Shown here one piece after another: positions 36,093 through 63,105 of a stretch of 64,000 bases of DNA. The translations under genes and the position numbers were made by a program. The number at the start of each line of letters is the position of its first letter. Position 1 is the stretch's first letter. The notes beneath the pieces are model-generated. The model did no database searches and was not told the origin of the DNA. It saw nothing but the letters and a program-made list of their open reading frames with translations. The stretch is from Blastocatellia bacterium (GTDB taxonomy: Bacteria > Acidobacteriota > Blastocatellia > UBA7656), in assembly GCA_035258805.1 (NCBI GenBank), contig DATFWY010000251.1, positions 843 through 64,842 of the forward strand, read 5' to 3'.

Positions 36093-37547
36093 TCACTCGC
36101 GACGTTTGAAGGCTCTTAATATTTCCTGGTACTGCTCGCGACTGTAATAGCCCTTGATCGAAGGATCTGCGTCGTAATCAGGAACGTACTCTTCCCGCAG
36201 AAGCTCATCTGCATCGCCGTACTTCGCCGCTATTCGTCGGATTTCAGGATCGTCAAGCAGCATAAGATGGCCCGATTCCACAATCTTTTTTCCATTCACA
36301 TAGACTGTCGGATAAGGAAGGAAGATATCGCTGTGCCAGGTTGGTAAGTCCTCCTTCATGCCATCCAAACCGGACCAACCCTTTCCGAAGCCTATATGAA
36401 CAAAACCCGATCGCTTGATTTCACACCACCAGTAGTTGTACGAGCCTTGTTGTTCGAAATATTTGGAGTTGAAAAAGTCTGGTCTTATAACCTTAGGGTT
36501 CGTGCCGAAGTAAACACCCTCGACCCAGGCCACGCCCTTGCCGTGCGGGAAGCCGTAATCCACGTCTTTGTACTTCTCAATGCCGTCACGCCACTCCACT
36601 GCGGTTTTGCCCTCGCCCTCTACCCTCACGATTTGACCATTCTCGATAAACAATTTCAGCGGCGACGTCGGGCCGGTGGGCAATGAAGTAGTTACAATCA
36701 CGCCTCGAGCATCGGGCTTCTTGGACAGCCCTGGCGAGATTTTGTTGTGAATAAACATGTACTCCATCCGGTGGGTGAGTGGGACCTCAATTCGGTTTAG
36801 ATCATATGCGAAATGTTGGCGTATCCAGTTGCGGTCGACATCTTCGGTGAACGTCACATCGGTGCCCAGCTGGTTTGTTATGCGTATCACTTTCGCGCCG
36901 CCGTCTACGTCGGTTTGCTCGTATAGTTTCCTTTGAAGCGCCACGTCCAGCTCCGCAGGGTATGTCGTCCACTTGGTGAACGCCAACTGCTCGCGAGTGT
37001 AGATATTACCTGGCAATCCAATGCGCCCACGGTTCCATTTTTCTTCAACTGTCTGTCGTCTTATTCCGTGATTGATGTTAATCGGCGCCAGCACAAGCGT
37101 CGCATCGGCCTTCATGATCGCGTTATCGAGCCACGTGGGCCACCAGCTCGTAGGTTCCGATCCCATCGGACCGGCTTCGGGGTTGACTCGATGTGAGGTA
37201 AGGTCCAGCGTCACTACGTCGACGATGGCGCCACGTTCTCTCGCGGCTCGCGCCCAGGCTTCCGTAATTAGGGGATCACCGGTCCTGGAATCGTCTACGA
37301 TGAGCACCTGCTCTCCTTTTTTGACCTTGGTCCCGTGTTCCAGATAATATCGCGTCCCGGGTAGCAGCTGTTCGACTGAGGTAACTTTATATCGGTCGGG
37401 GATTGTCGGTTTGCCGGTGCCCGCCGGGAAGTATGAGATGATCTTATTCTCTTTGTTTGCCTGCTTGTCCAGACCCGCTTGTCCCAGAGCCGTTTGGATA
37501 AATATTAATGTTGTTATCAGCAGAATGCCCCAATGTGCACGCTTCAT
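36093..37547 (-). CDS. Secreted M29-aminopeptidase/NicX-fold metalloprotein 1
   Basis: Signal peptide; EGVYFGTNP, HIGFG, HSD near the C-terminus; paralog of 61555-63105. Confidence 0.7.
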   Translation of the reverse strand: MKRAHWGILLITTLIFIQTALGQAGLDKQANKENKIISYFPAGTGKPTIPDRYKVTSVEQLLPGTRYYLEHGTKVKKGEQVLIVDDSRTGDPLITEAWARAARERGAIVDVVTLDLTSHRVNPEAGPMGSEPTSWWPTWLDNAIMKADATLVLAPININHGIRRQTVEEKWNRGRIGLPGNIYTREQLAFTKWTTYPAELDVALQRKLYEQTDVDGGAKVIRITNQLGTDVTFTEDVDRNWIRQHFAYDLNRIEVPLTHRMEYMFIHNKISPGLSKKPDARGVIVTTSLPTGPTSPLKLFIENGQIVRVEGEGKTAVEWRDGIEKYKDVDYGFPHGKGVAWVEGVYFGTNPKVIRPDFFNSKYFEQQGSYNYWWCEIKRSGFVHIGFGKGWSGLDGMKEDLPTWHSDIFLPYPTVYVNGKKIVESGHLMLLDDPEIRRIAAKYGDADELLREEYVPDYDADPSIKGYYSREQYQEILRAFKRRE

Positions 37548-37643
37548 ATTTGTCGCCTTTCAGAGCTCTTGCAGGATTGGCGGATCAGAAACTGACTGCG
37601 AAATAATAGGATCCAATCAATTCCGCGTGATCAATCAAAAGGA

Positions 37644-39026
37644 CTAATATCGTTGCCGTTTTGCCACACCGAGCGTGTCCTTCATGACCTTGCCACCCTT
37701 CATCACAAACTTCACATCTTCCAGAGTTGACATGTCGGCCAGAGGGTCACCACTGACCGCGATCACATCAGCACATTTGCCTGGTTCAATAGATCCGACA
37801 TCCTTTGAGAGCATCAGCAGTTGCGCGGCAATCGAAGTAGCCGACAATATGGCTTGCTGCGCCGGCATTCCCCACTTGACCATGAGCGAAAGTTGACGGG
37901 CGTTTGCACCGTGAGGAATGATGCCGGTATCAGTGCCAAAGGCTATTTGAACACCACCCTTCAGCGCCTTAACAAAACTCTCGTGCTTTACATCGTGAAG
38001 CTTACGCGCCTTTTCCATCGCATAAGCCGGTGTCTTGTTCTTTTCGCCCTGAGCGAGAGTGTACTCAGAAGTATAGATTGTTGGAACCAGGTACGCATTC
38101 TGCTGTTTGAATAACGCGATCGCTTCATCATCGAGCACGCTCCCATGCTCGATTGACCTGACTCCGGCTCTCAGAGCTGATTTTGTGCCATCGACTCCGT
38201 GAGAATGCGCCGCGACGTATCGCCCGAACCTGCGCGCTTCATCGACCGCTGCCTTCATTTCGTCAAACGAAAACTGCTCCCGTCCGGGGTCGTCACCGGC
38301 AGTGTAGATACCGCCGGTGGCGGCTATCTTTATCCAATCCGCGCCCCACTTGACCTCTTTTCGTACTGCCTTACGTACTTCATCTACGCTGTCCACGATT
38401 TCGCCAAAGCCGGCGATGTTTAACTCAGGAGCCGTGTTATTGAAATCCGCGTGACCGCCGGTGATCGATAGCAGATGTCCGGCAGCTACTATCCTCGGAC
38501 CCTGCACTTTTTTTGCATTGATCTCATCCCTGACCACGAGGTGGGCGTAGTACGGGTCCATATCGCCAGGATCTCGAATAGTCGTGAAACCAGCGTCGAG
38601 GTCCTTCTGCGCATTGATTAGACCTTCGATGGCATTAAGAGCTGACGAACGTCTAAGATAGGAGTCCTGTGTGTAACCTGCATCAGGAATAATGTGTGAA
38701 TGCACATCGATGAGGCCGGGCAACACCGTTGCGTTGCTGAGGTCGATGACGATCGCACCTTGAGGTATTGTGAGGCCCTCACTTTTTCTTACACTCTCAA
38801 TCCTCTCTCCCCGAATCACGACAGTCATTCGGTCCTGAGATTGGCCGTTGCGGCCGTCAATCAGCTTGCCGCAGCGGATGACAGTTAATTGTTCGGCACT
38901 GGATTGCTGCCCGTACATGGTCCGACCGAGTCCAAATATCGTAAGGACGATTGTTACCGCGGCAATTGCGTCTAAAGATACTTTCGATTTCATCGAAGCG
39001 AGCTCTCCGTTACTCTTAATACTCAT
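37644..39026 (-). CDS. Secreted amidohydrolase (Xaa-Pro dipeptidase-like subgroup)
   Basis: PGLIDVHSH, KIAATGG, AAHSHG, IEHG, FGTD. Confidence 0.92.
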   Translation of the reverse strand: MSIKSNGELASMKSKVSLDAIAAVTIVLTIFGLGRTMYGQQSSAEQLTVIRCGKLIDGRNGQSQDRMTVVIRGERIESVRKSEGLTIPQGAIVIDLSNATVLPGLIDVHSHIIPDAGYTQDSYLRRSSALNAIEGLINAQKDLDAGFTTIRDPGDMDPYYAHLVVRDEINAKKVQGPRIVAAGHLLSITGGHADFNNTAPELNIAGFGEIVDSVDEVRKAVRKEVKWGADWIKIAATGGIYTAGDDPGREQFSFDEMKAAVDEARRFGRYVAAHSHGVDGTKSALRAGVRSIEHGSVLDDEAIALFKQQNAYLVPTIYTSEYTLAQGEKNKTPAYAMEKARKLHDVKHESFVKALKGGVQIAFGTDTGIIPHGANARQLSLMVKWGMPAQQAILSATSIAAQLLMLSKDVGSIEPGKCADVIAVSGDPLADMSTLEDVKFVMKGGKVMKDTLGVAKRQRY

Positions 39027-39049
39027 CCCGAACAGAAGAATTGTCTTGT

Positions 39050-39568
39050 TTACTTACCAGCTCCGGGCATTGATGACTCGTGCAGGTGAACGATTACCCA
39101 GGCTCCATCCCGCTTCTCAAAAACGTAGCTGCCTCGCCCGCTGCCAACCTGCAGCTTGTTGCCTACGAGTCCTGAGAAGCTCCAGTGGCAGCTCACGATG
39201 GCAATCGAGCCGTAAACCTGAACAATAGGTTGACGGATGTTGATATTCATAGTGGAAATTGATGAGACGTATCCCTCCAGGCCCTTCCGCATCTCATTCC
39301 AACCCTCAATTCGGAGCGGTTTGCTTGGGTCGGGCCAGAATGCCTGGAGCTTATCGTCATTCGCGAACGATTTGGTAAGAGTCGCGAGGTCCTTCTTCTC
39401 GTAAGCATGAATGTAACGAAAGAACGCGTCGCTCACCTGCTCCGTATCGTTGGCTGGAGACGCGATCAGACTTCCAACAGCAGCGCCCGCGCGTTCGGAT
39501 TTCGAGCTTAGGGCGCCGAGTAAGAACACGAGAAGCAGTGCATTGATAAAGTAAGAGGTCCTCGCCAT
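39050..39568 (-). CDS. Secreted NTF2/SnoaL-like protein
   Basis: Signal-like N-terminus; VYGSIAIV and terminal WVIVHLHES. Confidence 0.85.
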   Translation of the reverse strand: MARTSYFINALLLVFLLGALSSKSERAGAAVGSLIASPANDTEQVSDAFFRYIHAYEKKDLATLTKSFANDDKLQAFWPDPSKPLRIEGWNEMRKGLEGYVSSISTMNINIRQPIVQVYGSIAIVSCHWSFSGLVGNKLQVGSGRGSYVFEKRDGAWVIVHLHESSMPGAGK

Positions 39569-39635
39569 ATTTTTTCCCCCCTCGCACCAGGAGACAAGAC
39601 CTTCGCGAAGCGCATCATTTCCGGTACTGCAGCCC

Positions 39636-41108
39636 TCAATCTTTGAGGCGCCGGGTCAGCCGACTCTTAACCCATTTAACCATTCGCTCCTCCAGTCCCT
39701 CATCTGTCTCAAATAGCTGATATCCAACCGCGCCACCGTCATAGATCCATACTTCGCTTCCCTTATCCTTGGTTAGATCGTAGAGGTCTGAAATCGCGTT
39801 TGTCACCGGAGCAAAGCCGCGGCTGCCAATAAACAGGATCGGGAAATGCGCCCCGGCGATCTCATCCCTCTCTTTTGCACTTGGTATGTAACCCGAGAGC
39901 ATAACGAGAGCGCCAATCCTCGTATCGCCCAGCGCGGCCATCACGGCAAATTTAGCACCTAGATATGTTCCCAATATCGCAAGTTTTGTTGGATCTACCT
40001 GTGACTGCTCGGCAAGGACATTCACCGCTCCCTTAGCATCTAGATAAGCGCGATCGCGTTCTTCTCTTGCGAGAGAGAAGTAATTGCCTTTTTCGCGACT
40101 TTTGCCGCGCCCACGCCAATCAATGTTGACTACAGCTATTCCATGTTTCGCGAACAGGATTTCGAGGTCATGAAAGATGTAACGATCGCTCCAACCCGAG
40201 TGCAATAAAACAACTCCGGGAACGCGTGTCTCTGCATCAATGTTCTCGGGTATTCGGAGATTGCCGTATATCATCCAGCCATCTTCGCTTTTGAAGGACA
40301 CCTCTTTTACTCTCCCGAGAGATTTCAATCGCAAGGCGATCCAATTGCAGATAACCTCTTCGATTGGTTTTTCGTCACCGGGATCTCGAGGCACCAAGCC
40401 GATTTTTTCGGTGTCGACTCCCTGACTCTTGGCTAAGAAATCAACGCCTTTCTTGTCGGGATACTTGTAGCGCCAGACTGTAAACATGGTCGTACCCATA
40501 CCCATGTTTTCGTAGACGCGGAATTCGCTTTCAGGGCTTTCCGATCTGGAGTAAATCGAAGACATCGCTTCAAATCCAGCTTTGTCTTCCTTGCTAACCA
40601 CGCACTGGATTGGGAGTCGATTGTTTGCCGCAAGCAGATCGCGGGCGCTCTCACTCAGCCTTCCGGAAAGCATTGACAGGGCCTTGACCCGAGGATCTCC
40701 GGCCGTCCCGGTGACAGCCCATTCTGAGCTTACCTCCTCGGCGAAGACCGCGATGCGATCTGAATCTATTTGAGGCTGTTCCGCCATGAAGTTCAATGCG
40801 GCTTGAACATCGTGACGAATATTTGCTTTCTGTGATTCGGTGAACGAGTGATATTCCTGTGAGCCAATGCTTTCGCCTCGACCTCTCCAATCGATGCGCA
40901 AGACGGCGACTCCCTGAGAGTTGAGCAACTGAGCCATACCCGGGTACACGAATGACGTAAATGCATCTCGATCGTGTCCGGCACCGTGAAGGAGCAGCGC
41001 GCCGGGCGCGCGCTCCTCAGCACTCGCTCCGCCGGGAAGGTGCAGTGAGCCGTGAATCGTCCAACCGTCCTCGGTATCAAACTTTACCTGGCGTTCCGAA
41101 GATTCCAT
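39636..41108 (-). CDS. Tandem (A+B) alpha/beta-hydrolase-fold protein, no signal peptide, triad absent
   Basis: Two F-x-T/S-EDGW starts; AEEVS and GTYLG elbows; YDGGAVGYQLF. Confidence 0.88.
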   Translation of the reverse strand: MESSERQVKFDTEDGWTIHGSLHLPGGASAEERAPGALLLHGAGHDRDAFTSFVYPGMAQLLNSQGVAVLRIDWRGRGESIGSQEYHSFTESQKANIRHDVQAALNFMAEQPQIDSDRIAVFAEEVSSEWAVTGTAGDPRVKALSMLSGRLSESARDLLAANNRLPIQCVVSKEDKAGFEAMSSIYSRSESPESEFRVYENMGMGTTMFTVWRYKYPDKKGVDFLAKSQGVDTEKIGLVPRDPGDEKPIEEVICNWIALRLKSLGRVKEVSFKSEDGWMIYGNLRIPENIDAETRVPGVVLLHSGWSDRYIFHDLEILFAKHGIAVVNIDWRGRGKSREKGNYFSLAREERDRAYLDAKGAVNVLAEQSQVDPTKLAILGTYLGAKFAVMAALGDTRIGALVMLSGYIPSAKERDEIAGAHFPILFIGSRGFAPVTNAISDLYDLTKDKGSEVWIYDGGAVGYQLFETDEGLEERMVKWVKSRLTRRLKD

Positions 41109-41133
41109 AATCTCCTCCCGAGAGAGGCAGTGG

Positions 41134-42633
41134 TCACTTTCTGAAATGATTTGCGGTGATTCGCTGAGCGGCGAGAACGCAGACTGTAGCTATAGGCCCT
41201 ACAGCATCTCCTGAAGATGAGCGCGGAACGACGCTTCCGTCGCAGATGAAAAGACCGCTTACATCATGCGATTCGAAATTTGGATTGACCACAGATACCT
41301 TTGGGTCTGACCCGGCTTTGCAGGTGCTAATGCCGTGAGCTATGTGGTAGATGGGCGGCATATCGTACCCGACAATCTTTTTTGCGCCCATCTTCTGCAA
41401 TACTTCTCGAGACATTTCACCGCCTTCACGCAAGCGCTTTACGATGATTTCATTGCCTTCGTACTCCATCTGCGAAGTCCGGAGATTTATGTATCCCCGA
41501 TAACCCTCTGGCTTCTTAAGCACAACAAGCGTTCCGCCCCGGTGCATTCGTGCCTGCTTCATAAATTGCTTGTGCTCGCGGCCGAAGGCGGGGGCAAATG
41601 GACTGAAGGCCAAACCCCAGGGCTCATCTACGCCAATCATTCCGCTATCTTTTATTCTGAGCCTCCCGTAGGCGTTAGGGCCTGCATCATCCAGGAAGAA
41701 ATATCCGGCGGGCGCTGCGCCGCGTGAGCCATCCTTTATGACTTCATCGAAGTATGCATGCACAATGATAGCGGCGTGTATATCCAGGTGTTTGCCGATA
41801 TTGTTATTCTCAACAATAAGTTTTGCACCGAGTTCTTCCTTTGAACCATAACCGGACATGAAGAGCAGGCGTGGCGTGCCGATCACTCCAGCGCTCACGA
41901 TTATGTTTGGTGCTTTCAGCTCAACCATTGCTCCGCCCTGCTGAAAGGCGACGCCGGTTGCAGTTGGACGTGCTCCCCTTTTCTCGATAATTACTCGGTC
42001 CACTGTAGCATTTGGGATGATGTCGACACCGTGCTTCTCGGCAAGCGGTATGTACGTCGTCATCGCATTCATTTTGCTGTCATAACGGCAGAAGTATCCG
42101 CCTTCGCAGAATCCGCAGTAAATACAATTGCGTCGGGCAACCTGTGCAGAGTGAACCTCGCGGCCAAGTGCGCGTGCGGCGTCTCGAAACATGAGACAGC
42201 CCTTCGAGAGCACTTCGTCGGGTTCCGTGTGGATGTTGTAGATCTTTTCGACTTCTGCTGCAGCTCCGCGGCAAGCATCCTCGGTCCAATCAGTGCCTTC
42301 GTCCACCCAGTGCTTATAATCGACGCTGTATGGCAGGTAAACGCTGGCGCCGTAATGCATTGTAGTACCGCCTACCATCTTGACCATGCCCCATGGCCAC
42401 ATGCGCTCAGGAGCATCGTCGCTAAATACATTGGTGATCAACTGTCGCCTCGATGGGATTCCGTAACCAGGTCGAGGCTCGCCTTTCCAATATGGACCGG
42501 CCTCGAGCATCGCGATGCGCAGTTGCTCACCGTTCTTCGGGTTGACTCCCTTCGCGGCGAGATGTGCCGCCAGGATGCTGCCGCCAACCCCGGAACCGAT
42601 TATTATCACGTCGTAGTTCTTTTGAGTTTGCAT
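41134..42633 (-). CDS. GMC family FAD oxidoreductase
   Basis: DVIIIGSGVGG, VGGTT, CIYCGFCEGGYFC, HGISTCKAG, GLFICDGSV. Confidence 0.93.
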   Translation of the reverse strand: MQTQKNYDVIIIGSGVGGSILAAHLAAKGVNPKNGEQLRIAMLEAGPYWKGEPRPGYGIPSRRQLITNVFSDDAPERMWPWGMVKMVGGTTMHYGASVYLPYSVDYKHWVDEGTDWTEDACRGAAAEVEKIYNIHTEPDEVLSKGCLMFRDAARALGREVHSAQVARRNCIYCGFCEGGYFCRYDSKMNAMTTYIPLAEKHGVDIIPNATVDRVIIEKRGARPTATGVAFQQGGAMVELKAPNIIVSAGVIGTPRLLFMSGYGSKEELGAKLIVENNNIGKHLDIHAAIIVHAYFDEVIKDGSRGAAPAGYFFLDDAGPNAYGRLRIKDSGMIGVDEPWGLAFSPFAPAFGREHKQFMKQARMHRGGTLVVLKKPEGYRGYINLRTSQMEYEGNEIIVKRLREGGEMSREVLQKMGAKKIVGYDMPPIYHIAHGISTCKAGSDPKVSVVNPNFESHDVSGLFICDGSVVPRSSSGDAVGPIATVCVLAAQRITANHFRK

Positions 42634-42640
42634 TGATTAG

Positions 42641-43291
42641 TCAGCGCCGCCAGAGTTTCTGAAATTTCGTCCTGCACTCTTCTTCTTCTTGCCAGGTCAT
42701 CTGTGCTTTAAAACCGGAGATGTCCCAGCCGGTGACCAGATCATTGGTGTTCGGGTTTGTGATTTGGTGTTTGTCTCTCTGTTTTAGTATTGGGACTCCA
42801 GCCTGGTCTCGCGGGATGACGTTCTCCGGATAATTCTGATAGAAGACCGTAAACACTCGTGTTCTGGTTTGACGATATACCTTTTGCAGAACCTTGAGAC
42901 GATTCTTATCGCTAATTTTGCTCCCATCTATGATTAACAGGAGGTAGTCAGCTCGGTGAGAGGGTGCAAGCTGAAGAAATGTTCTGCCCTCGAAGAATTC
43001 GGTGCTGCCTTGATTGAAGGCTTCAAGGTCGTCGTCGCTTATTCCGTCGAGCTTCTTCATGACCTCTTCAGTAATCTTGTGTTGCTCCAGGCTTTTGTAA
43101 CCCGGATCGCCTGGGTCCGTCGGGATCAGCGTGTCGCCAATCGATGCAATCATCGCGTGGCGGTCAAGCCTAGAAGCTTGATGACTTTCACTTCTTCCAT
43201 AAGCCAAGCCCGACCCGATGCTTGTGATTGCGATCGAGCCGGCGCCCGATCTCTTCAGGAATTCTCTACGGGAAACTTTGCTTTTGCTCAT
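42641..43291 (-). CDS. TAT-signal protein, gluconate-2-dehydrogenase subunit 3-like
   Basis: SRREFLK; IGDTLIP...PG; F-x-QL-x-x-x-x-R pattern; directly upstream of the GMC gene. Confidence 0.7.
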   Translation of the reverse strand: MSKSKVSRREFLKRSGAGSIAITSIGSGLAYGRSESHQASRLDRHAMIASIGDTLIPTDPGDPGYKSLEQHKITEEVMKKLDGISDDDLEAFNQGSTEFFEGRTFLQLAPSHRADYLLLIIDGSKISDKNRLKVLQKVYRQTRTRVFTVFYQNYPENVIPRDQAGVPILKQRDKHQITNPNTNDLVTGWDISGFKAQMTWQEEEECRTKFQKLWRR

Positions 43292-43358
43292 ACCTCAATC
43301 AACCTCTCACGATGCGCTCAACGATGGTGGTATTTCCAGAACCCACAAGTCCCTCAGT

Positions 43359-43658
43359 TCATAGATTACGAGTTAACTCCAACAGCTTTTGGTAGCTAAT
43401 GGCGCTCCAGGTTTCAACAGAGCTTGCCATGCCTGAAGCGAGTATGACGGAGGCCATTTTGAAGGCGGTCTCTTCATTTGGAGCCTCGAGAATATCCATA
43501 AAATCGTACGGTCCCAGCAGAGCGAGGTGTTCTCTAACATTCACCTCGGGGCAAGCTTCTCTGTACCGCGCTCCAACCTTTTTCCCGATCTCTTCCATCG
43601 ACTTGATATTCTTCGCAAGCTCCGGCGCCATCTTTATCAACATCACAAACGTTGCCAT
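43359..43658 (-). CDS. GYD-domain protein
   Basis: LLGPYDFMDILEAPNEETA; ATG 43658 after AGGAG. Confidence 0.85.
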   Translation of the reverse strand: MATFVMLIKMAPELAKNIKSMEEIGKKVGARYREACPEVNVREHLALLGPYDFMDILEAPNEETAFKMASVILASGMASSVETWSAISYQKLLELTRNL

Positions 43659-43749
43659 TTGATATCTCCTTTCAAGTGTTCGACCACGCAATGAGAGTGC
43701 GCACAAGCCGCCCTAAACAACAGGGCATGCTTTGCGAGGACGCGATCTT

Positions 43750-44136
43750 TTACTGGCTCAAAATATCAATCACGACTTCGTCCTCGACGAACTGCTTGTA
43801 CTGCTCATGCAACCGCTTGCTCTGCGGACTCTTGATGTAAGCCTCCTTGGCTTCCTTGTTCACGAAGTCGATCGACATGCCATATTTGTACTTTGTGAGA
43901 TTGCTCGTCTGCGGGCCAACCACGATATTGGTTGCGCCACTGATCGTGGGTAACGTCGCTCTTGTTTCAGCGAGAATTCGATCGATAGCAGACTGCGGCA
44001 CATCAGCCTTGAAGTTAAACGCGACCGCGTGCCGCAGAATTCCCTTCGGCGCGTTTACCGGAGGAGTCTGTTTAGCACCCACCAGCACGACCAATATCAG
44101 CAGTAGAGTCAGACAAACTGGAATCAAGCGCTTCAT
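43750..44136 (-). CDS. Secreted Dabb (stress-responsive A/B barrel) protein
   Basis: Signal peptide; LRHAVAFNFK and YGMSIDF...AY. Confidence 0.8.
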   Translation of the reverse strand: MKRLIPVCLTLLLILVVLVGAKQTPPVNAPKGILRHAVAFNFKADVPQSAIDRILAETRATLPTISGATNIVVGPQTSNLTKYKYGMSIDFVNKEAKEAYIKSPQSKRLHEQYKQFVEDEVVIDILSQ

Positions 44137-44203
44137 TGCAACCTCCTGAGTATCCTATGCGGCGGTATTAAACCGACACTCCTCATTCTGCAATTCTCTG
44201 GGG

Positions 44204-44947: not shown

Positions 44948-44995
44948 ACTCTCACTCAGGATTGGACACACTCCGTCTCTTGATCCGTTGTCGGT

Positions 44996-46462: not shown

Positions 46463-46521
46463 AAATCAGTTCTCCTTTTGAAACAGCAACGGTTTCACCT
46501 CGATCATGGCCGAGATCCTGA

Positions 46522-53021: not shown

Positions 53022-53054
53022 AATCGCTGGGATGCCCGCTTTAATTCTGAGCGT

Positions 53055-53930: not shown

Positions 53931-55240
53931 TCAACGACTAATGGCTCAAGCTTCGGGTCTAATTCGAAAAGCTGATAACCGATAGCGCCGCCGTCGTACA
54001 TAAGAAGACGCGTCAACTTGTCGGGCGTCGCTTCGTACAATGCTCGCATGATCTGAGTCACCTGCTTATGTCCGGTGCAGGTCACGTACAGAGTATGAAC
54101 CGCACCGCTGGTCAGGTAATCGCGTTCTTTGTCATCGACCGGTATGTATCCGGTCAACAATGCCAGAGCTTTGACGCGCGAATCTCCTATCGATCCGCGC
54201 ACTGCATGCTCGGCGCCGTGAACAACGCCGACAACCCCAACTCTATCTCGATCGACTCCGTCCTGTGACGTCAGAAAATCAATTGCCGCCTTTGCATCGA
54301 GCCTGCCATTAGCACGCTCCTCTTTCGAAAGATCGAAATACTTACCTTTGCTGGTGCTCTTGCCCCGGCCTCGCCAATCGATATTGAGCACGGCGAATCC
54401 TTCTCGCACAAGTAATCGTTCGAGACTTGCGAACACATATCGATCGCTGCGTCCGGAGTGCAGCAACACCGCGCCGGGTGACGGCCAGACATCGGTATCG
54501 GGGAACAGCAAATTGCCGAAGATCTCCCAACCATCTTCGGTTGTGAAGGAAACCTCACGCTCGCGGCCTACTGAAGAAAGCTGACGGCGAATCCATCCAG
54601 CTATCAGTTGCTCAATCGGTTCGCGATCCGGAAAACGGAATGCCCACTTCTCAATCATCCGCTCCCCGCGTCCCATCCCTTCGAAGACATGCAAGTCTGT
54701 ATCTGGATGGTTCGAGGAAAGATAAATGTCGGTCATGTCTCTCAAAGAAGCCTTGTCCTCGCTGCTCGCTATACACAAAACAGGGTCATCCTGCCACTCG
54801 GTAAGAAATTGCTTCGCGGTACTGCTCAATCGACCCGACAAGAACACGAAAGACCTGACTTGCGAAAAGGCGCGTGAGCCAAGGACTGCCGCGTCTGCAG
54901 CGCCTTTTTCGGCAATGATCGCGATGCGATCGCCGACACCCTGCCTGGCAGACAACAGCTCCACGGCCGATCTCACCGATTTCACCTGCCGGTCCGATTT
55001 ATGCAGTGAGTCCTTCTCTGTTCTTCTGTTGTTCTCAACTGTCTTATCTCGAAGCTCAACCCAATGAAACGACAAACCGGCAGATTCAATAGCCACAGAA
55101 AGCCGGTTGCTGGGAGCGATCGAGCTTCCGCGGCCATTTTTCCGGGAGGCTCGCGAAGACCTGAGCATTAGAACGCTACCAAGCGAGCTGGTTAAGCCCG
55201 TAGGATTCAAAGCGTCCACTTGTTCGTCCTTTATTCCCAA
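53903..55240 (-). CDS. Tandem (diverged A + B) alpha/beta-hydrolase-fold protein, triad absent
   Basis: AEKGA and GVVHG elbows; EVSFTTEDGW; YDGGAIGYQLF. Confidence 0.85.
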   Translation of the reverse strand: MGIKDEQVDALNPTGLTSSLGSVLMLRSSRASRKNGRGSSIAPSNRLSVAIESAGLSFHWVELRDKTVENNRRTEKDSLHKSDRQVKSVRSAVELLSARQGVGDRIAIIAEKGAADAAVLGSRAFSQVRSFVFLSGRLSSTAKQFLTEWQDDPVLCIASSEDKASLRDMTDIYLSSNHPDTDLHVFEGMGRGERMIEKWAFRFPDREPIEQLIAGWIRRQLSSVGREREVSFTTEDGWEIFGNLLFPDTDVWPSPGAVLLHSGRSDRYVFASLERLLVREGFAVLNIDWRGRGKSTSKGKYFDLSKEERANGRLDAKAAIDFLTSQDGVDRDRVGVVGVVHGAEHAVRGSIGDSRVKALALLTGYIPVDDKERDYLTSGAVHTLYVTCTGHKQVTQIMRALYEATPDKLTRLLMYDGGAIGYQLFELDPKLEPLVVEWLKAGVAQ

Positions 55241-55307
55241 TGCTAACTTTTCGATAACATTCCTAGGTGCAATCGTGACCGTCCCAGGAAAGATTGATAA
55301 TTACGTG

Positions 55308-56795
55308 CTAAGGGCACGTCGCGCCGCTGACGCCAACTTCCTTGAGTTCTGAGCGATGAACTTCGAGCTGCTTTTTGAACCACGAGACTATAGTTGGCTC
55401 GAGTTCTCTGTCCTCACGAAAACGTAAGTACGCTACGATGCTGCCTGGATACGTAAGCACCTTGTTTGAGTAATTCTCCGCGACGGTAGAAGCGAAATTC
55501 CTTGTCAGCTCCCCCATTCCGTCACCGGTAACGACAAGAACAGGTTGCTTGATTGAACTCAGAGTGTCCCGGTCGCCCGCATCGCTCCACGCCCACACCA
55601 CGGGATCGAGCATCCCAATTGCTCTCAAGTTCGGATTCTCTTTTGCGCCGTTTAGAGCATAGTTAGCCGCGAGCAATGCACCCAGAACACCTATTCGATC
55701 AGCATCGACACCATTGCACGAAGTGAGCACCTGATAGCCTCTATGAAGGTCGCGTCGTCCCGCCATGATTTCTGCGAGACTTTGGTCAATGTATGACCCT
55801 TTGTTGATGCTTTTGCCGATGCCCCGATATTCAAGGTTAAGAAAGGCTATGTTATTGGCCAGCAGCAATCGCTCGAGATTCCGATAGATGTTTCGATCAG
55901 TTAGCGCGGTGGGTAGGAGGATTACTCCGGGAACTGTCTGTCCACGATCTATTGCTTCCGGTAAACCGAGATTTGCGTAGAGTATCCATCCGTCCTCGGT
56001 TTCAATTGTTATCTCGCGAACGTTGCCCAAAAGTCGAAGCTGCTCTTCCAGCCAGGCCCCCGCGGCGAAGTCCAACGCGTTCTCTATAGGCCGGTCGGCA
56101 TATCGATTGCGCCACATATTACACATCGTGACGCCTACGCCGAGACCGTCCTGCACCCAAATATCGCTTTGCGGGTTTTTATTCAAACTGTAAGCCTTGG
56201 TCATATCAGCGAAGCCTCGCTTGTCTTCTTTGCTGACGATGAACAGCATCGGCTTGTTTCTGTTTCCAGCTAACACCTCCATTGCGCTCTGAGACAGAAT
56301 TCCGGAGAGAAGCACCAGAACACCGACCCGCGAATCTTGCATGGCGCCTATCACTGCAGGTCCGGCGCTGAACTCTTCGGCCACGACTCCAATGCGTCTG
56401 TGATCCACCTCATCCTGCGTGCCGATAAAGTCGAGCGCGGCCCGGACGTCCAGCACAACCTTGTCGCGCTCGGCCTGAGGCATTTCTATGAATGGAGTTC
56501 CTCCTTCGCTTTTCCCGCGTCCTCGTATGTCGATCCGCAACGTGACCACAGATTCCTGAAGCTTCGCCCAACCGGGAAAGCTGACCCAAACTGACCGCGA
56601 GTGCATTGAAGAGTGAAGCAGAAGGACAGCGGGACGCCTCTCCGATTTGGGCTGCTTCGACGGGATGGTGAGGGAACCACTAATGGTCCAGCCATCTTCA
56701 GTAACAAAGGTCACTTCTTTCTGAATTGAATCTGGCTTCAAATAGAAACCAGCCGGCTTGTCGTCCTTCTCATTCATTATCTGGTTGAACTTCAT
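55308..56795 (-). CDS. Tandem (A+B) alpha/beta-hydrolase-fold protein, triad absent
   Basis: EVTFVTEDGW, AEEFS and GALLA elbows, YPGSIV. Confidence 0.85.
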   Translation of the reverse strand: MKFNQIMNEKDDKPAGFYLKPDSIQKEVTFVTEDGWTISGSLTIPSKQPKSERRPAVLLLHSSMHSRSVWVSFPGWAKLQESVVTLRIDIRGRGKSEGGTPFIEMPQAERDKVVLDVRAALDFIGTQDEVDHRRIGVVAEEFSAGPAVIGAMQDSRVGVLVLLSGILSQSAMEVLAGNRNKPMLFIVSKEDKRGFADMTKAYSLNKNPQSDIWVQDGLGVGVTMCNMWRNRYADRPIENALDFAAGAWLEEQLRLLGNVREITIETEDGWILYANLGLPEAIDRGQTVPGVILLPTALTDRNIYRNLERLLLANNIAFLNLEYRGIGKSINKGSYIDQSLAEIMAGRRDLHRGYQVLTSCNGVDADRIGVLGALLAANYALNGAKENPNLRAIGMLDPVVWAWSDAGDRDTLSSIKQPVLVVTGDGMGELTRNFASTVAENYSNKVLTYPGSIVAYLRFREDRELEPTIVSWFKKQLEVHRSELKEVGVSGATCP

Positions 56796-56838
56796 CGCCG
56801 AGATCTGTAACTGAGCTCCAGCCTGGGCTTTCTGGTGA

Positions 56839-57841
56839 CTACTTGAATCGAGGAATTACTTCTCGACCAAACAACTCAATGCACCGCAGAACATCCGAGT
56901 GATCAGGTCCGTGCGGATGCCGAAACATCAGGATCATCGTTTCACATCCGATTTCTGTTTGGTACTTCTCTATTTCGCGTATGACTACATCAGGTGTTCC
57001 GGCGATTAAGCGGCCGGATGCCGCCTGCTCGAAGCGCCAGCCTGATGGATCGACTCCTCCAGTGTCTTTGAATAGCCCGAGCTGAACATAAGGTTTATAG
57101 AAAGCCTTCACGCAAGGCCACCATTTGTCTACAACCTCGTGCTGGCTTGGGGCTACCCAGGCGCTTCGCGCCAGTGCCACCTCCGAAGGCCTGCCGTTAT
57201 CGACTGCGGATTGGCGATAAATCTTCGCCCACTCCCTAGTAGTCTCGATTCCCTGAAGATTGTCGGTGGGCCATCCGTCTCCAATTCTTCCTGCCCGCAA
57301 GAGCCCCGGTTTTGAAATCGCGCCAATCCAAATTCGTGGCCCATTCGGCTGCACTGGCCTTGGAGAAACGCGGACGTTTTCCAACTGAAAATGTTCGCCT
57401 GAGAATGAAACCGTCTCTTCAGACCACGCGCGCCTGATTACTTCGACACTTTCCTGGAAACGACGGACGATGCCGTTTTTAGGAATGCCAAAAGCTGATC
57501 GGTTTTTTTTGACCGAGTCCAACTCCGAGTATGAAGCGACCACGAGAGATGTTGTCGACAACTGCAGCAATCTCAGCAACGTGAACCGGATGCCACATTG
57601 GTAGCTGCATAACATCAGACGCAATGATCATCCGACTTGTCCGAGCCGCAAGCGCGGCGGAGAACGTGAGGGCCGATGGCAGGTAGCCATCTGGGCTGTG
57701 ATGGTGCTCGCCCACCACCGCAAAATCGAAGCCGAATTTCTCCGCCGCTTCAGCCTCGCGGAAGGCTTCGTTGTACACCAACGCGATGTTCTCGCCGCGA
57801 GGTGGATCTTGAGTGTTTAGAACTATCCCAAACCGCATCAC
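56839..57841 (-). pseudogene. LLM-class (luciferase-like) flavin-dependent oxidoreductase split by a frameshift
   Basis: N-part 57479-57841 (GEHHHSPDGYLPS, DNISRGRFILGVG); C-part 56839-~57510 (PRPVQPNGPRIWIG). The frames switch at an A8 run (T8 at 57503-57510). Confidence 0.85.
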
Positions 57842-57906
57842 ATTCTCGCGATCAAAAGAAAATACTTACTGGCGAAGAGAGTTCTTAGGATTGCGTGTTC
57901 GACCTC

Positions 57907-58016
57907 GAACCGCAGGGATTTACAATCTTGTTCCGGGAACTCTGCCACAATCGCGGTACTCTGCGTTCTCCGCGGTTAAAGTCATTTCAACCGCTTAGAG
58001 CGCTGAGGTAACAGAG
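57907..58016. repeat. Degenerate REP-like palindromic element (AACCGC...GCAGAG / CTCTGC...GCGGTT type)
   Basis: ctctgcgttctccgcggtt at 57959-57977, with aaccgc-containing arms on both sides. Confidence 0.4.
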
Positions 58017-58032
58017 GAATCTTAACAACACA

Positions 58033-59520
58033 TTAATTAATGCTCGCAGCGCGGCCAATTACTTTCTCAACGTCAGCCTCCACTAAGGTTCCTTTGAAGA
58101 AATCGGCATTCGTGCCGGCAAAGAGAGAGACCGGATTTCCGAAAACGAAATCGCGGAAATCGGTTTCAGTAATGAGTTCCTTGTCCACCAGCTCCCAGGC
58201 TTCCTCGACCACTCTTGCCATATCCGGGACATCCCAGTGCGAGATGTCCGAACCGAAGATTGCATTTAGTCGCGCTCCGAATGGATTTACTTTTGAGTTG
58301 AAGGACCACGCATTGATGGGATCATCGGCCTCACAGCCAAAATAGAAGCTATTCACAAAGAGATCGCGAATATCCTCGGCTTTTTGAATATTGCAGTAGG
58401 CCCATTCATCCGGTGTTGGTTCGGTCTGTTTTGCTTCGTCGCGAACGGCGGCTCCGGCCCCAAGAGCCAGCGGATCCCTGCCAAGCTGGTCCAAGCGTGC
58501 ACCCATCGATCCGCCATATTGCTTGTACAGGTCGAATAGCAGTTTGCGATCGAGGTTGGCAGGGTTGGTATTCTCAAGGGCGGAGACGTTGCGCTTCTCC
58601 CAGTGTCCTATCAAATCTGCGTACAAGCTGCACGCCCACCCGACTCCGCACTCAAGGAATGCAAACTTTAGGTTCGGGAACCGCCTTGTCACTCCTCCCA
58701 AAAAAAGAGATTTGCATACCGCTTCGCCGGCTGTAGCGAAGCTGCCAATATGGTTATACACATATGCGGAGATCGAGTTTCTACTTCCCCAACCTGTCGC
58801 GCCGGTATGAAAGCAGGGCGCTACTTTCAGCTCAACGCATTTTGCCCACACAGGATCATAGTCATACTCACTATCCAGCCCATACGTATCCAGCCAGAAT
58901 GCCCATCGCGATGCCTGGGGCATTTCGCGTATGGCGGCGGGAATGGGTCGACGCACATATGCCTGCATGAAAACGACCTTCATTCCCAGCACGTTAACGG
59001 CGTGTTCGAGCTCTTCAATCGCTTCTTGCGGTTTGTGCATCGGTATGACGGCAGCTGCAGTGATGCGATCAGAATATTCCCGGTACAGATCGGCGTAGTA
59101 GGTGTTGTATGCGCGGCAAACTGCGCGGCGCAATTCTTCGTCTTTCGGATAGGTGGCGGACATACCGACAGACGGAAAGAGCACAGTGAAGTCCATCCCG
59201 AATTCATCGAGCCGTTCGTATAGCAGGCGAGGCAGCGTAGCTGTTGCTCGATCCAATGTGTTCTTTGTGGGTGCGCCCCACCAGGGCGAACGGGCAACTC
59301 GTGTATCCAGCCGTTCTTCGGGCGACAGATGGTCCCAGCTGAATAACCTGCTGCCCGCTATTGACGACACGTAGCCGTCGACAACACCTGGTCCGCCGAC
59401 TTGTCTGAGGTAATCCAAGACATCAGGCTCGAACTCAATCATGTGCCCATCACAATCAATAATCGGATGACCTATATGGGCGCGAACGTTCGCAGATTTA
59501 CTCGCGCTGGGCTTGGTCAT
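58033..59520 (-). CDS. Amidohydrolase_2 family protein (decarboxylase/hydratase-like), cytoplasmic
   Basis: IDCDGH, CFHTG, FLECG, FGSDISHWD; likely ATG 59520. Confidence 0.9.
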   Translation of the reverse strand: MTKPSASKSANVRAHIGHPIIDCDGHMIEFEPDVLDYLRQVGGPGVVDGYVSSIAGSRLFSWDHLSPEERLDTRVARSPWWGAPTKNTLDRATATLPRLLYERLDEFGMDFTVLFPSVGMSATYPKDEELRRAVCRAYNTYYADLYREYSDRITAAAVIPMHKPQEAIEELEHAVNVLGMKVVFMQAYVRRPIPAAIREMPQASRWAFWLDTYGLDSEYDYDPVWAKCVELKVAPCFHTGATGWGSRNSISAYVYNHIGSFATAGEAVCKSLFLGGVTRRFPNLKFAFLECGVGWACSLYADLIGHWEKRNVSALENTNPANLDRKLLFDLYKQYGGSMGARLDQLGRDPLALGAGAAVRDEAKQTEPTPDEWAYCNIQKAEDIRDLFVNSFYFGCEADDPINAWSFNSKVNPFGARLNAIFGSDISHWDVPDMARVVEEAWELVDKELITETDFRDFVFGNPVSLFAGTNADFFKGTLVEADVEKVIGRAASIN

Positions 59521-60884
59521 GCTTCTCTCTCCGTTTCGACCAGGACAACCGGATCCGTCCATCCGGCATTTTCTTCCGGCTGCTCGTGCCCGCTCTTAAA
59601 TGTTCGTACTTTACTCGGACGAGCGCTCCAGACCAGCACAATCGATGAAGCTACAACGGCAGTGGCAATGATGAACATTGCGCGGTAGCCGCCGGTCTTA
59701 TCAAAAGCGTAACCACCCAACCATGCGCCGAAGGCTCCACCAAAGCCGCCCAGCATGTTCATCGCTCCAAAAATTGACCCGAATCGCTTCCCCTGAAAAA
59801 CATCTGCCGCTGACGCCATGATCGCCGGAAAACTCATACCGAAACCGACGCCAAAAAAGACCGCGTAACCGTAGAGTAGAATCGTGGTTGGATAAACCTG
59901 AATGAGACTGAGTGCAAGAATCCCGGCAATATAAATGATGGCGCTGAGAGTCAGCGTCTTTTCTCTTCCGACCCGATCCGACAGGATGCCTCCAACGAAA
60001 TTGCCCGCAGTCGACATCAGGCCCTGTAACCCTACAAACGAAGCGGCTGTGATGCTGCTGATTCCGGCTGATTGCAAATAGGCAACCAATTGAACGCCGA
60101 TGAGGAAAGTGGCTCCAGTGGCGACGATGAACAGGAGGGCCAACGCCCAGAAGCGATATGTCCTCGCTGCGTTCTTGAGAGTCCACTCCGTTCCGGCCCA
60201 CTGCCGATCCACAACAACCATCTGACGGCCACGGGCACCGTGCGAGCCAGTCCCGGCGCCGGACGAAACTTCCGGGTGATTCTCGAGGCCCTTATCTGCG
60301 GGCTTGTGCCTTTGAAACAGGATTATGATTGGCACCACTATGACTGTAATGATCGCCGCCAGCCAGATGTAGGCAACACGCCATCCGGAACGTGAAATTA
60401 CATACTGAATTGCCGGAAAGAAAACGAGCCTCCCCAGGCCGAGGCTTGCCATGATGATCCCCAGAGCAGTCGCACGATTACGCCCAAACCAGTTCGAAAT
60501 AATCGCAGCATGCGGCACGACTTGAACCGCACAGAGTCCGACCGCGCCTACCAATCCGAACCAAAGATAGAAATGCCACAACTGGTGAATCTGACTTGAT
60601 CCCACAAAACCAGCGGCGAGAAGCAGGGCCCCAATCGGCATAACAGTGCGTGGCCCGTAACGGTCTATCAGGAGTCCAATCAAAGGTGACAGCGCACCGC
60701 TGACGAACAGATTCAGCGAGTAAACACTTGCCGTCGCTGCGCGCGTCCAGCCAAACTCTGTCAATATTGGCGGGTAGAAGAGAGAGAAGGAAAACCACGC
60801 TGGCGAGACAATTGCCATCGTTACAAATGAGACGGCAACGACAATCCAACCATAGTAGACTTTTTGACTGGGCTTACTGTCCAT
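59517..60884 (-). CDS. MFS transporter (12 TM)
   Basis: YYGWIVV, GLLIDRYGPR, GILSDRVGR. Confidence 0.93.
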   Translation of the reverse strand: MDSKPSQKVYYGWIVVAVSFVTMAIVSPAWFSFSLFYPPILTEFGWTRAATASVYSLNLFVSGALSPLIGLLIDRYGPRTVMPIGALLLAAGFVGSSQIHQLWHFYLWFGLVGAVGLCAVQVVPHAAIISNWFGRNRATALGIIMASLGLGRLVFFPAIQYVISRSGWRVAYIWLAAIITVIVVPIIILFQRHKPADKGLENHPEVSSGAGTGSHGARGRQMVVVDRQWAGTEWTLKNAARTYRFWALALLFIVATGATFLIGVQLVAYLQSAGISSITAASFVGLQGLMSTAGNFVGGILSDRVGREKTLTLSAIIYIAGILALSLIQVYPTTILLYGYAVFFGVGFGMSFPAIMASAADVFQGKRFGSIFGAMNMLGGFGGAFGAWLGGYAFDKTGGYRAMFIIATAVVASSIVLVWSARPSKVRTFKSGHEQPEENAGWTDPVVLVETEREA

Positions 60885-60926
60885 TCTCTGATGACTGCCG
60901 CCCTATTCCGAGGGAAGCTGATATTC

Positions 60927-61595
60927 CTAATCCTTGGTTTTGAGGTATGCCTTGATACGATTCAACGTTGTCGCACCGATCCCCTTAACTCGCAGCAGAT
61001 CTCCGACTGACCCGAACGCACCGGAGGACTCGCGGCTCTCGACTATTGCTCCGGCAAGCTCAGGCGTCAGACCGGGTAACCGCGCGAGTGCTTCGGCCGA
61101 GCTTGTATTTAGATTCATTGGGAGCTGTTCAATGGGGTTCTTTTCGCCAAAATTTTTCGATAGGTAGTCGATCAGCGGTTGAACATCTTCTTTGTCAACA
61201 GGAGCCTGATACGCTGAGATCATCTTCTGAACAGTAGTGCGCCAGTTGCTGCTTGATTTTTTTTGAGTTATGACCTGACTAAGGTCATGGCAACTCGAGC
61301 ATGCCAGCGCGACCTCAGCCTTCCCCGACCCTTCCGGCAAGAAAACGCTCCAGTCAACTTTCTCCGCTTTAGTTCCAGCGGCATCTTGATTGGCGACCGT
61401 AGAACGCGCTGCGCTAACAAGCGAGGCAACTGCAACCGTCAAACAGATGACACATTTTGTCCATTTCAAACGCGGCAGCCTGGGCGCATCCGAACCGAGC
61501 CTTCCCTCCTGGCTGGCGCGATGCACCGGAGACTGTCCCGTCTCCGGTCGCTTACTATTTGTATTCCTTCTTGGCTCGATCAATCGCCTCGCCAT
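60927..61595 (-). CDS. Cytochrome c plus ComEA-type helix-hairpin-helix fusion
   Basis: CSSCH; MNLNTSSAEALARLPGL...GAF-x-SV-x-DLLRVKGIG. Confidence 0.88.
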   Translation of the reverse strand: MARRLIEPRRNTNSKRPETGQSPVHRASQEGRLGSDAPRLPRLKWTKCVICLTVAVASLVSAARSTVANQDAAGTKAEKVDWSVFLPEGSGKAEVALACSSCHDLSQVITQKKSSSNWRTTVQKMISAYQAPVDKEDVQPLIDYLSKNFGEKNPIEQLPMNLNTSSAEALARLPGLTPELAGAIVESRESSGAFGSVGDLLRVKGIGATTLNRIKAYLKTKD

Positions 61596-63105
61596 AAGCC
61601 TTCCGCGCTTCCTGCTTCATATAGGTTTCAGGGTCGTTGGCGTAGTCTTTCATGTAATCGCCAGGTACGTTTATACCGGGAATTGCTGGAATCCAGTCTT
61701 CGCTCAACAGATCGTCAACGGTGCCATATTCTGGATGACTGGCAACGATCTTTGCGGCCAGTTCTCGAACGCTCGGGTCATCCATTGCTGTCAGGTGCCC
61801 CTTGTCTATGAGCTTTACTTCACGACCATCCTTTAGCTTACAGGTGTAAGTTGCAAAGTAGAGGTGTGCGTGGAAGTGATAAAACGGCAGTGATGGTTTT
61901 TGCCTGAGAGCCCATATCAGGTCGAGCGCCTGGCCAATACCGAGGTGCATAACACCAGAACGATCCCGCTCGCCTATAAAAGTTGGTCGCACGGTCGATG
62001 ATTCAAAGACATTGAACGGACGAATGACTTTTGGAGACGTGCCGATCGCTGCCTCGATGAACCAGTCAATGCCGGGACCGGGATAGTGCGGGAATTTAAC
62101 GTCCTTGTATTTTTCGATGAAGTCGGTCCAGAGCTTACCGAATTCACCGCCCCCTTCGATCCGAGTAATTTTATTGTGCTCCAGGAAGATCTTGATATGC
62201 GGGTAAGGACCTATATGATCAGAAGTACCTGCGACAACCCCATGCAAGTCAGACTTTGGAAGCACGATCCCAAACGGATATCCGGTAAGGTGCCCCGAGA
62301 TGATTGGGTCTTTGAGTGAGCCGTGGTGATAGACGTGAGTGCCGAATCCCTCGGTTTGGTAGCCCGGGTAGTTGCCATCCATTATTTGCCAGTACTCAGG
62401 GAACCAGGTAAACGTGACATCCGTTCCTTCCGGATCGGTGATCCTTACGGTATCGGTCTGCCTGAGGACTTTCCAGGAGACGCGATCCATCGCCTCGATA
62501 AGTTCCTCCGGGTACATTACCGCGGGGCTCGCGAGTTGCTCGCGTGTGGGCCAATCCATTGAAAAGCTGTAATACTTCAGCGTGCAGTTATTGTTTGCCC
62601 AAAAGGTTTGTCCGATTACCTTGTCATAGCCGGATTTCTTTGCGACTTCTTCTGTCCACTCGGGCCCCCCGAGCATCCACGCAGCCGGTTGGCTATCTAC
62701 AAGGATCTTCATCAGTTCGGGTGTTTTGAAGAGCCTTCTCTTTCCTTGCTCCTGGAAGACGTCGACCTGACACTTCATTTCGTCCCTGAGTACGCGCATG
62801 AAGGCTTCGAGCACCAATGGGTCAACATCGCTGTCTATGACGAAGAGGACTTTCTCGCCTCCTTTAACCGCATAGCCGGGGCGTTGATCGCCGGTATAGG
62901 GCATTGGTCTCTGGACTATTCGGCGGACGTAAGGGAGGAGCTGATCGGCGGTAGTAATCTCGGGGATCTTAGGATAACGTGGCGCCGGATAATCAAACTT
63001 AGCAGCTAGTGGCTTTTCGCTTCTTGCGTGTGATGGAACAGTAGCAGGTAAAAAGACGAGAAGCGCGATTGAGACGATGAATAGGCGGAAAGCTTTTCTA
63101 AACAT
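61555..63105 (-). CDS. Secreted M29-aminopeptidase/NicX-fold metalloprotein 2
   Basis: Likely ATG 63105 with signal peptide; EAAIGTSP, HLGIG, HFHAH. Confidence 0.7.
   Translation of the reverse strand: MFRKAFRLFIVSIALLVFLPATVPSHARSEKPLAAKFDYPAPRYPKIPEITTADQLLPYVRRIVQRPMPYTGDQRPGYAVKGGEKVLFVIDSDVDPLVLEAFMRVLRDEMKCQVDVFQEQGKRRLFKTPELMKILVDSQPAAWMLGGPEWTEEVAKKSGYDKVIGQTFWANNNCTLKYYSFSMDWPTREQLASPAVMYPEELIEAMDRVSWKVLRQTDTVRITDPEGTDVTFTWFPEYWQIMDGNYPGYQTEGFGTHVYHHGSLKDPIISGHLTGYPFGIVLPKSDLHGVVAGTSDHIGPYPHIKIFLEHNKITRIEGGGEFGKLWTDFIEKYKDVKFPHYPGPGIDWFIEAAIGTSPKVIRPFNVFESSTVRPTFIGERDRSGVMHLGIGQALDLIWALRQKPSLPFYHFHAHLYFATYTCKLKDGREVKLIDKGHLTAMDDPSVRELAAKIVASHPEYGTVDDLLSEDWIPAIPGINVPGDYMKDYANDPETYMKQEARKAYGEAIDRAKKEYK

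Follow-up and report, generated by a model that had tools for sequence, protein, structure and literature searches.

Two activities have so far been known for proteins of the M29/NicX fold, both of them cytoplasmic: those of the co-catalytic aminopeptidases and of one Fe(II) ring-cleaving dioxygenase. A 64,000-nucleotide stretch of a Blastocatellia bacterium genome (assembly GCA_035258805.1, contig DATFWY010000251.1, positions 843 to 64,842 of the forward strand; hereafter the window) encodes two proteins, named A and B here, which share this fold and look exported. This raises the question of which metal site such proteins carry and what they could do outside the cytoplasm. We place A and B in the M29-aminopeptidase/NicX fold superfamily, within one uncharacterised family. 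Residue alignment indicates that both keep the M29 co-catalytic metal-binding positions, with histidines in place of carboxylates.

Fold and family of A and B

A and B are the only copies of the family in this 8.26-Mb genome, according to a six-frame search, and share 31% identity over ~470 residues (BLASTP, E=9e-46). The earlier note, made from the sequence alone, had described them as paralogs with signal peptides and with different metal-ligand motifs, and both parts of this description hold: the motifs are recovered by translation (Table 1), and the N-termini of both proteins are of the Sec type by their sequence features. For B, an alternative start is the GTG at 63192; the ATG at 63105 yields a signal peptide and agrees with the starts of the orthologs.

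AlphaFold2 models of the two proteins were built on family alignments and reached a predicted local distance difference test (pLDDT) value of 82.6 for A and 86.2 for B. The Foldseek comparison with the PDB, which had been proposed as a check, returned NicX (7CN3/7CUP) as the best match for both (3e-16 for A, 2e-12 for B), with TM-scores on target of 0.60-0.67 between NicX and the models. The second tier consisted of PepS (9e-12), AmpS and AmpT (1e-9 to 1e-11) for A and of PepS and AmpS (~1e-10) for B; beyond NicX and the M29 aminopeptidases, Foldseek found no other significant PDB match for either protein.

Profile comparisons lead to the same place. In hhalign, the family profile matched an M29 set drawn from other Acidobacteriota with a probability of 99.9% (E=5e-35), and with 99.5% when a deeper family alignment (132 sequences) was used. 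A 126-sequence family profile reached NicX in the PDB at 9e-8 across the full length and PepS at 0.007, NicX being the sole solved protein found at a significant E-value; one short, signal-less member of the family (P0171) matches NicX directly (E=0.01). Since Foldseek, hhalign and the profile search against the PDB agree, the fold of A and B is M29/NicX-like, as the earlier note had supposed, and NicX is their nearest solved relative by both structure and sequence.

The relationship is a distant one. Single-sequence searches with A or B gave no match in Pfam, NCBIfam or the PDB, a 39-sequence family profile did not reach NicX in the PDB, and neither Pfam PF02073 nor NCBIfam matched A or B even at E<=1. 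A whole-genome PF02073 search detected no canonical M29 gene in this genome, while the control genomes gave matches. A precomputed PF26233.1 entry, given without a score, is present on A and 10 homologs, and most homologs, including those of the B type, have no such entry.

The family itself is large. A profile search against 1.84 billion cluster representatives (50% identity clusters) returned 1,581 clusters at E<=1e-3, 199 of them at <=1e-30. Where a source name is given, the homologs are all called "hypothetical protein", save one Joint Genome Institute (JGI) entry, "leucyl aminopeptidase (aminopeptidase T)". The most conserved stretch of the family is a C-terminal signature, GHLxxLDDPEIRRIAAKYGDxDELL, the start of which aligns with the C-terminal helix of NicX; the N-terminal YPAPRYP motif is also family-specific.

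By their putative ligands, 131 full-length representatives include 66 of the HxHxH class, to which B belongs, 19 of HxDxE, 14 of HxDxF (the clade of A) and 14 "other" sequences in which the metal-site His is lost. The family tree places A in the HxD clade and B in the HxH clade. Because three changes of state suffice on this tree, HxD and HxH represent old clades, and the motif difference between A and B marks this ancient split.

The metal site

The residue map given in Table 1 combines an M29/NicX alignment, two hhalign runs and a HMMER profile alignment to NicX. In the M29 enzyme AmpS, Glu319 and a water bridge the two metals, Glu253 and His348 bind one of them, His381 and Asp383 bind the other, and Tyr355 assists. 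These six residues (E253, E319, H348, Y355, H381 and D383, the EEHYHD motif) were all found essential in LmAmpII by mutagenesis (PMC7023490). NicX binds a single Fe(II) through His265, Ser302, His318 and Asp320, and its Arg293 positions Asp320 (PMC7910607). Leu104/His105, Glu177 and His189 are the substrate residues of NicX.

At the EEHYHD positions, A reads H-(E)G-H-W-H-D and B reads H-E-H-L-H-H. Neither protein is a canonical M29 enzyme, and neither looks like an ordinary M29 aminopeptidase, because three of the six essential residues differ in each. Judged by its predicted ligands, neither has a NicX-type site: the four Fe(II) ligand positions are occupied by Gly344, Gly386, His405 and Asp407 in A, with two of four kept, and by Glu351, Gly389, His410 and His412 in B, with one of four identical.

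These readings revise what had been proposed for the individual sites. A had been taken for a NicX-like His...His-x-Asp protein, and the second half of this assignment stands, since its HxD matches His318 and Asp320 of NicX; the first half does not, since the His of HIGFG corresponds to M29 His348, which NicX has lost, and Gly344 replaces the first NicX ligand, His265. For B, the suggested three-His site gives way to a richer one, in which His272, Glu351, His387, His410 and His412 would provide a metal-binding residue at all five M29 ligand positions, the bridging Glu included, with His414 as a sixth candidate. The predicted pattern in B is that of a two-metal site architecture with His in place of the terminal carboxylates.

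The placement of A His267 and B His272 at the Glu253/Phe194 position is probable and is the sole uncertain row of the map, the others being firm. The first, shallower hhalign run set His267 three residues off, opposite the Asn of the M29 NLPxGE motif (equivalent to NicX His189); this placement was overruled by the deeper hhalign run and by the HMMER alignment to NicX.

The metal-site residues are conserved at 85-95% among 131-190 family representatives, and we argue from this conservation that the family has a working metal centre. Glu343, which precedes Gly344 in A, co-varies with HxD. A conserved Arg (R379 in A; 166 of 186 representatives) stands 5 residues ahead of the His384 strand, compared with 7 in NicX.

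Export of A and B is predicted from their N-terminal sequence features rather than from SignalP. The N-terminus of A reads MKRAHWGILLITTLIFIQTALG up to the putative cleavage site (ALG, then Q), and that of B reads MFRKAFRLFIVSIALLVFLPATVPSHA up to its own (SHA, then R). Both combine a positive n-region, a hydrophobic core (11-residue Kyte-Doolittle maximum of 2.8 in A and 3.2 in B) and a small-x-small cleavage site, and neither N-terminus contains a twin-arginine motif or a lipobox. The AlphaFold2 model of A has a helix at residues 4-24, followed by a disordered linker. Thus the export proposed in the earlier note looks likely for both proteins.

Across the family, about 70% of the representatives carry Sec-like signals, a few carry signals like those of twin-arginine translocation (TAT), and the remainder are signal-less, by a heuristic and not by SignalP. 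TAT-like signals in place of Sec signals were noted on P0073, P0077, P0099, P0113 and P0137; a protein with a TAT signal would fold, and perhaps take up its metal, in the cytoplasm ahead of export. One signal-less HxH sub-clade occurs in metagenome-assembled genomes (MAGs) of Binatia and Deltaproteobacteria (loci L052, L059, L063, L066, L075 and L079), where a PuuE/polysaccharide-deacetylase-like gene lies upstream and an aconitase-family (LeuC-like) gene downstream, a context unlike that of the exported clades.

The distribution of the family is patchy. Among 121 sampled Acidobacteriota species genomes, strong matches were found in two (this one and G112) and weak partial matches (E ~1e-10) in two more, and just 1 of 14 species genomes of the same genus has a match. 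Relatives are present in MAGs labelled Gammaproteobacteria, Binatia, Deltaproteobacteria, Chloroflexota and others. One locus labelled "uncultured Clostridia bacterium" (L019, CAZOOE010000014.1, identical to G134:C14) has an ortholog 87% identical to A with the same neighbours; its label is probably mis-assigned, because its genome is placed in the genus of the window.

Some MAGs hold at least 5 copies, tandem arrays, or fused double-domain proteins of 750-860 amino acids (aa). Arrays of five family-profile matches were seen in L094 (7935-16530, all full-length) and L095 (31-7524, some of them short), and fused proteins of 780-860 aa in other Acidobacteriota MAGs (L023, L025, L026 and L027). 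The arrays and fusions suggest a rapid diversification of paralogs and a dimeric functional unit.

Gene context and possible functions

From A through B, the genes are nearly collinear, at 45-77% protein identity, with positions 9583-38089 of contig C144 of G150 (L103, L104), a genome of a different family in the same class; because of this collinearity we regard the span as one conserved accessory cluster. It looks accessory, and may be a transferred periplasmic catabolic island, because 13 of the 14 genomes of the same genus lack any member of the family. There is no compositional island signal, the GC content being 0.52-0.53 throughout the cluster. The cluster encodes three Cc2672-like amidohydrolases, several S9, S15 and alpha-beta hydrolases, an Amidohydro_2 protein and transporters of the major facilitator superfamily (MFS). 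Genes of the nic pathway (nicC, nicD, nicF and nicE types) were not recognised in it.

Table 1. Positions of A, B, their metal-site residues and neighbouring genes in the window (residue rows name the M29 and NicX equivalents)
Feature	Position	Strand	Description and basis
Protein A	36093..37547	minus	484 aa; predicted exported NicX/M29-fold protein, HxD clade, HSDIF sub-clade; open reading frame (ORF), AlphaFold2, Foldseek, tree
Predicted Sec signal peptide of A	37482..37547	minus	residues 1-22, cleavage after ALG; sequence, hydrophobicity
Family signature GHLxxLDDPEIRRIAAKYGDxDELL (in A)	36192..36272	minus	invariant and near-invariant columns
Protein B	61555..63105	minus	516 aa; predicted exported NicX/M29-fold protein, HxHxH clade; ORF, AlphaFold2, Foldseek, tree
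Predicted Sec signal peptide of B	63025..63105	minus	residues 1-27, cleavage after SHA
M29 E253, NicX F194	A 36747..36749; B 62290..62292	minus	A H267; B H272; placement probable
M29 bridging E319, NicX H265	A 36516..36521; B 62053..62055	minus	A G344, with E343 preceding; B E351
M29 H348, NicX L300 (S302 serves instead)	A 36384..36398 (HIGFG); B 61933..61947 (HLGIG)	minus	A H384; B H387
M29 Y355, NicX none			A W391; B L394
M29 H381, NicX H318	A 36321..36335 (HSDIF; HSD 36327-36335); B 61864..61878 (HFHAH; HFH 61870-61878)	minus	A H405; B H410
M29 D383, NicX D320			A D407, of HSDIF; B H412, of HFHAH
M29 no equivalent, NicX P322			A F409; B H414, an extra His kept across the HxH clade
Accessory gene cluster, ~27 kb, A and B at its ends	36093..63192	minus	conserved; collinearity with G150:C144
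Exported amidohydrolase-superfamily dipeptidase/carboxypeptidase	37644..39026	minus	directly upstream of A
MFS transporter	34553..36052	minus	directly downstream of A; Pfam MFS_1 1e-62; kept in G134
Two further exported amidohydrolases	49418-50908, 51543-53021	minus	distant paralogs of the Cc2672-like gene; NF051886 partial matches 1e-45, 2e-38
222-aa protein, monohaem c-type cytochrome domain (CSSCH, SorB-like) and ComEA-type helix-hairpin-helix domain of DNA-binding type	60927..61595	minus	directly downstream of B
MFS transporter	59517..60884	minus	B operon; Pfam MFS_1 5e-71
Cytoplasmic Amidohydro_2 protein	58033..59562	minus	B operon; Pfam; weak PDB matches to PtmU3 and decarboxylases

A lies in a co-directional run in the order GMC flavoprotein complex, S9-like hydrolase, SnoaL, amidohydrolase, A and MFS transporter. 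The product of the amidohydrolase gene directly upstream of A matches the Cc2672 L-Arg carboxypeptidase (3MTW) at E=5e-98 and the NF051886 model of the Caulobacter-type Xaa-Pro dipeptidase at 461 bits, just below its 500-bit cut-off, and a Cc2672-like gene directly precedes the ortholog of A in all three loci examined (L015, G134/L019 and G150). In the next HxD sub-clade, the gene of a 620-650-aa Amidohydro_3 protein precedes the family gene. Over 77 loci, an amidohydrolase gene lies within 3 kb (<=3 kb) of 15 of the 31 HxD genes, compared with 7 of the 50 HxH genes. Outer-membrane proteins of the TonB-dependent type were found in 14 loci, and MFS transporters beside family genes in 8.

On the B side, orthologs of the cytochrome/helix-hairpin-helix gene adjoin B-type genes in G150, L030 and L090, following the B-type gene in G150. 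We considered and rejected the idea that the family generally has a c-type cytochrome as its partner: of 90 surveyed family genes, only the one at this locus is immediately followed by the gene of a CxxCH protein. The Amidohydro_2 family of the B operon also adjoins A- and B-type genes in L015 and L018.

Two further features of the neighbourhood may be recorded. On the plus strand at 31334-32956, a 540-aa protein combines CarboxypepD_reg with a beta-propeller of the Vgb-lyase/SGL type and a CxxCH motif (CISCH), and weakly resembles the small cytochrome beside B. On the minus strand at 56839-57841, a luciferase-like monooxygenase is split into a 120-aa N-terminal part (57479-57841) and a 261-aa C-terminal part (56839-57624) in overlapping frames; its ortholog in G150 is a single 334-aa ORF, and either the gene has become a pseudogene by frameshift or the assembly is wrong here.

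For the function of A and B, we tentatively favour, at not quite an even chance, periplasmic metal-dependent hydrolases of peptides or amides. This preference is drawn from the retained two-metal ligand architecture, from the periplasmic metal loading that Sec export implies, from the repeated and tight pairing of A with dipeptidase-type amidohydrolases, and from the setting of outer-membrane and MFS transporters, which resembles nutrient uptake. A protein exported through Sec would acquire its metal in the periplasm, and Fe(II) is then less likely than Zn, Mn or Cu. The metal would probably be zinc, in a site that may be dinuclear at least in B. Small molecules that enter via TonB-dependent outer-membrane transporters would be the substrates, and peptide or other amide bonds would be cut from the end. 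A and the Cc2672-like dipeptidase, whose gene lies directly upstream, could act one after the other, and the adjacent MFS transporters might then take up the products.

Several observations weigh against hydrolysis. The nearest solved relative by structure and sequence is a dioxygenase, and NicX/Hpo has no aminopeptidase activity (PMC3831237). The M29 residues altered in both proteins, the catalytic tyrosine among them, belong to the essential EEHYHD set (PMC7023490), and the two hhalign runs differ locally on the placement of His267. The cluster holds redox genes as well, namely those for a GMC (glucose-methanol-choline) flavoprotein with small subunits, a trihaem cytochrome, a thiamine diphosphate (ThDP) enzyme and the luciferase-like monooxygenase, and the gene of a SorB-like cytochrome c directly follows B. 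A literature search returned nothing on exported NicX-like or M29-like proteins, on PF26233 or on COG2309.

These points bring forward another explanation, which we consider rather unlikely and yet worth keeping in sight: A and B would be exported, would use the NicX scaffold as O2-dependent oxygenases or oxidases, and would oxidise or cleave a periplasmic compound of aromatic or heterocyclic nature. A would then use a His/Asp site, with a possible contribution of Glu or His, and B would bind Fe, Cu or Mn through three to five His and a Glu and might exchange electrons with the adjacent monohaem cytochrome c. NicX as the best match for both proteins in structure and profile searches, the exact alignment of HxD with His318-x-Asp320, the M29 catalytic Tyr missing as it is in NicX, and the abundance of periplasmic redox enzymes in the cluster all suit such a role. 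The SorB-like cytochrome gene that comes after B both here and in G150 and is close to B-type genes in L030 and L090, the Cupin_7, glyoxalase, SnoaL and UbiD genes of related loci, and the TAT signals of some members, which would permit loading of a cofactor before export, can be added to them. However, the NicX ligand set is retained in neither protein, and no conserved equivalent of the NicX substrate residues His105, Glu177 and His189 appears in the family alignment. A Sec-exported Fe(II) enzyme would also need to capture its iron and retain it under the oxic conditions of the periplasm, the cytochrome is no general neighbour of the family, amidohydrolase and peptidase genes predominate around the family, and some members come from MAGs labelled as anaerobic lineages, for example Syntrophobacteraceae.

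A more specific variant of oxidative chemistry seems improbable to us, namely that the HxHxH clade, including B, builds a dinuclear Cu or Fe centre of five His and one Glu on the M29 two-metal scaffold and serves in the periplasm as an oxidase or oxygenase that, in this lineage, is coupled to the downstream SorB-like cytochrome c, with A as a second, hydrolytic or mononuclear, specialisation within one catabolic island. If this is true, the aminopeptidase-S fold would have its first class of exported redox enzymes. Less probable again is that A and B are ordinary M29 leucyl- or arginyl-type aminopeptidases that have acquired signal peptides. The shared fold and the profile homology to M29, the peptidase-rich gene context and the JGI name of one homolog would agree with this; against it, neither protein is reached by PF02073 or NCBIfam at the lenient threshold given above, EEHYHD is broken in both although each of its residues is essential in LmAmpII (PMC7023490), and the family has its own C-terminal signature and YPAPRYP motif. 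Lowest of all we rate non-catalytic periplasmic binding or scaffold proteins, which would hold a metal or a ligand for neighbouring hydrolases or transporters. Such a role could fit the position of the family beside transporters, with proteins like TonB-dependent receptors and MFS here, and the loss of the His residues in the 14 "other" representatives, but the metal-site residues are strictly conserved in A, in B and in >85% of the family, and the paralog arrays and clade-specific ligand sets resemble enzymatic diversification.

Relation to known M29 and NicX enzymes

The family adds a third branch to the M29/NicX fold, comprising ~1,600 clusters at 50% identity that are wholly uncharacterised and, by prediction, mostly exported. 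The metal site predicted here is intermediate between the two known ones and occurs with at least three conserved ligand sets, and the family might be an evolutionary bridge between the M29 peptidases and NicX. Its genes turn up repeatedly in loci for nutrient scavenging, in Acidobacteriota and in other uncultured bacteria of soil and groundwater. Characterising one member per clade would reveal the way in which a two-metal hydrolase site was remodelled and would assign a function to these recurring genes, and the window, with both clades in one conserved cluster, offers a convenient pair for such a comparison.

NicX/Hpo (7CN3, 7CUP; PMC7910607, PMC3831237) resembles A in its H318-x-D320, with which the H-x-D of A aligns exactly, resembles both A and B in having no M29 catalytic Tyr, and may resemble the family at large in an Arg near the position of its R293. 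The differences are also clear: NicX is cytoplasmic and has 350 aa, while A and B are predicted to be exported and are 100-160 aa longer. Its His265 corresponds to Gly344 in A and Glu351 in B, its Ser302 to Gly in both, and its Asp320 to His412 in B; in addition, the family retains the M29 His that is Leu300 in NicX and has a conserved His, by the probable placement, where NicX has Phe194.

The M29 enzymes AmpS (1ZJC), PepS (4ICQ), AmpT (2AYI) and LmAmpII (PMC7023490) are cytosolic, carry EEHYHD and match PF02073, whereas A and B have predicted signal peptides and no PF02073 match. In the site itself, Glu253 is replaced by His in both proteins (again by the probable placement), Glu319 by Gly in A, Asp383 by His in B, and Tyr355 by Trp in A and Leu in B. 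M29 lacks the C-terminal DDPEIRxxAAKYGDPDELL signature of the family and the extra His of the B clade (HxHxH). What the M29 enzymes share with the family is the two-domain fold (clan MQ), the GTD motif, and the ExxxG, HxxxG and HxD strands in the same order, and their dimer is echoed by the fused double-domain members of the family.

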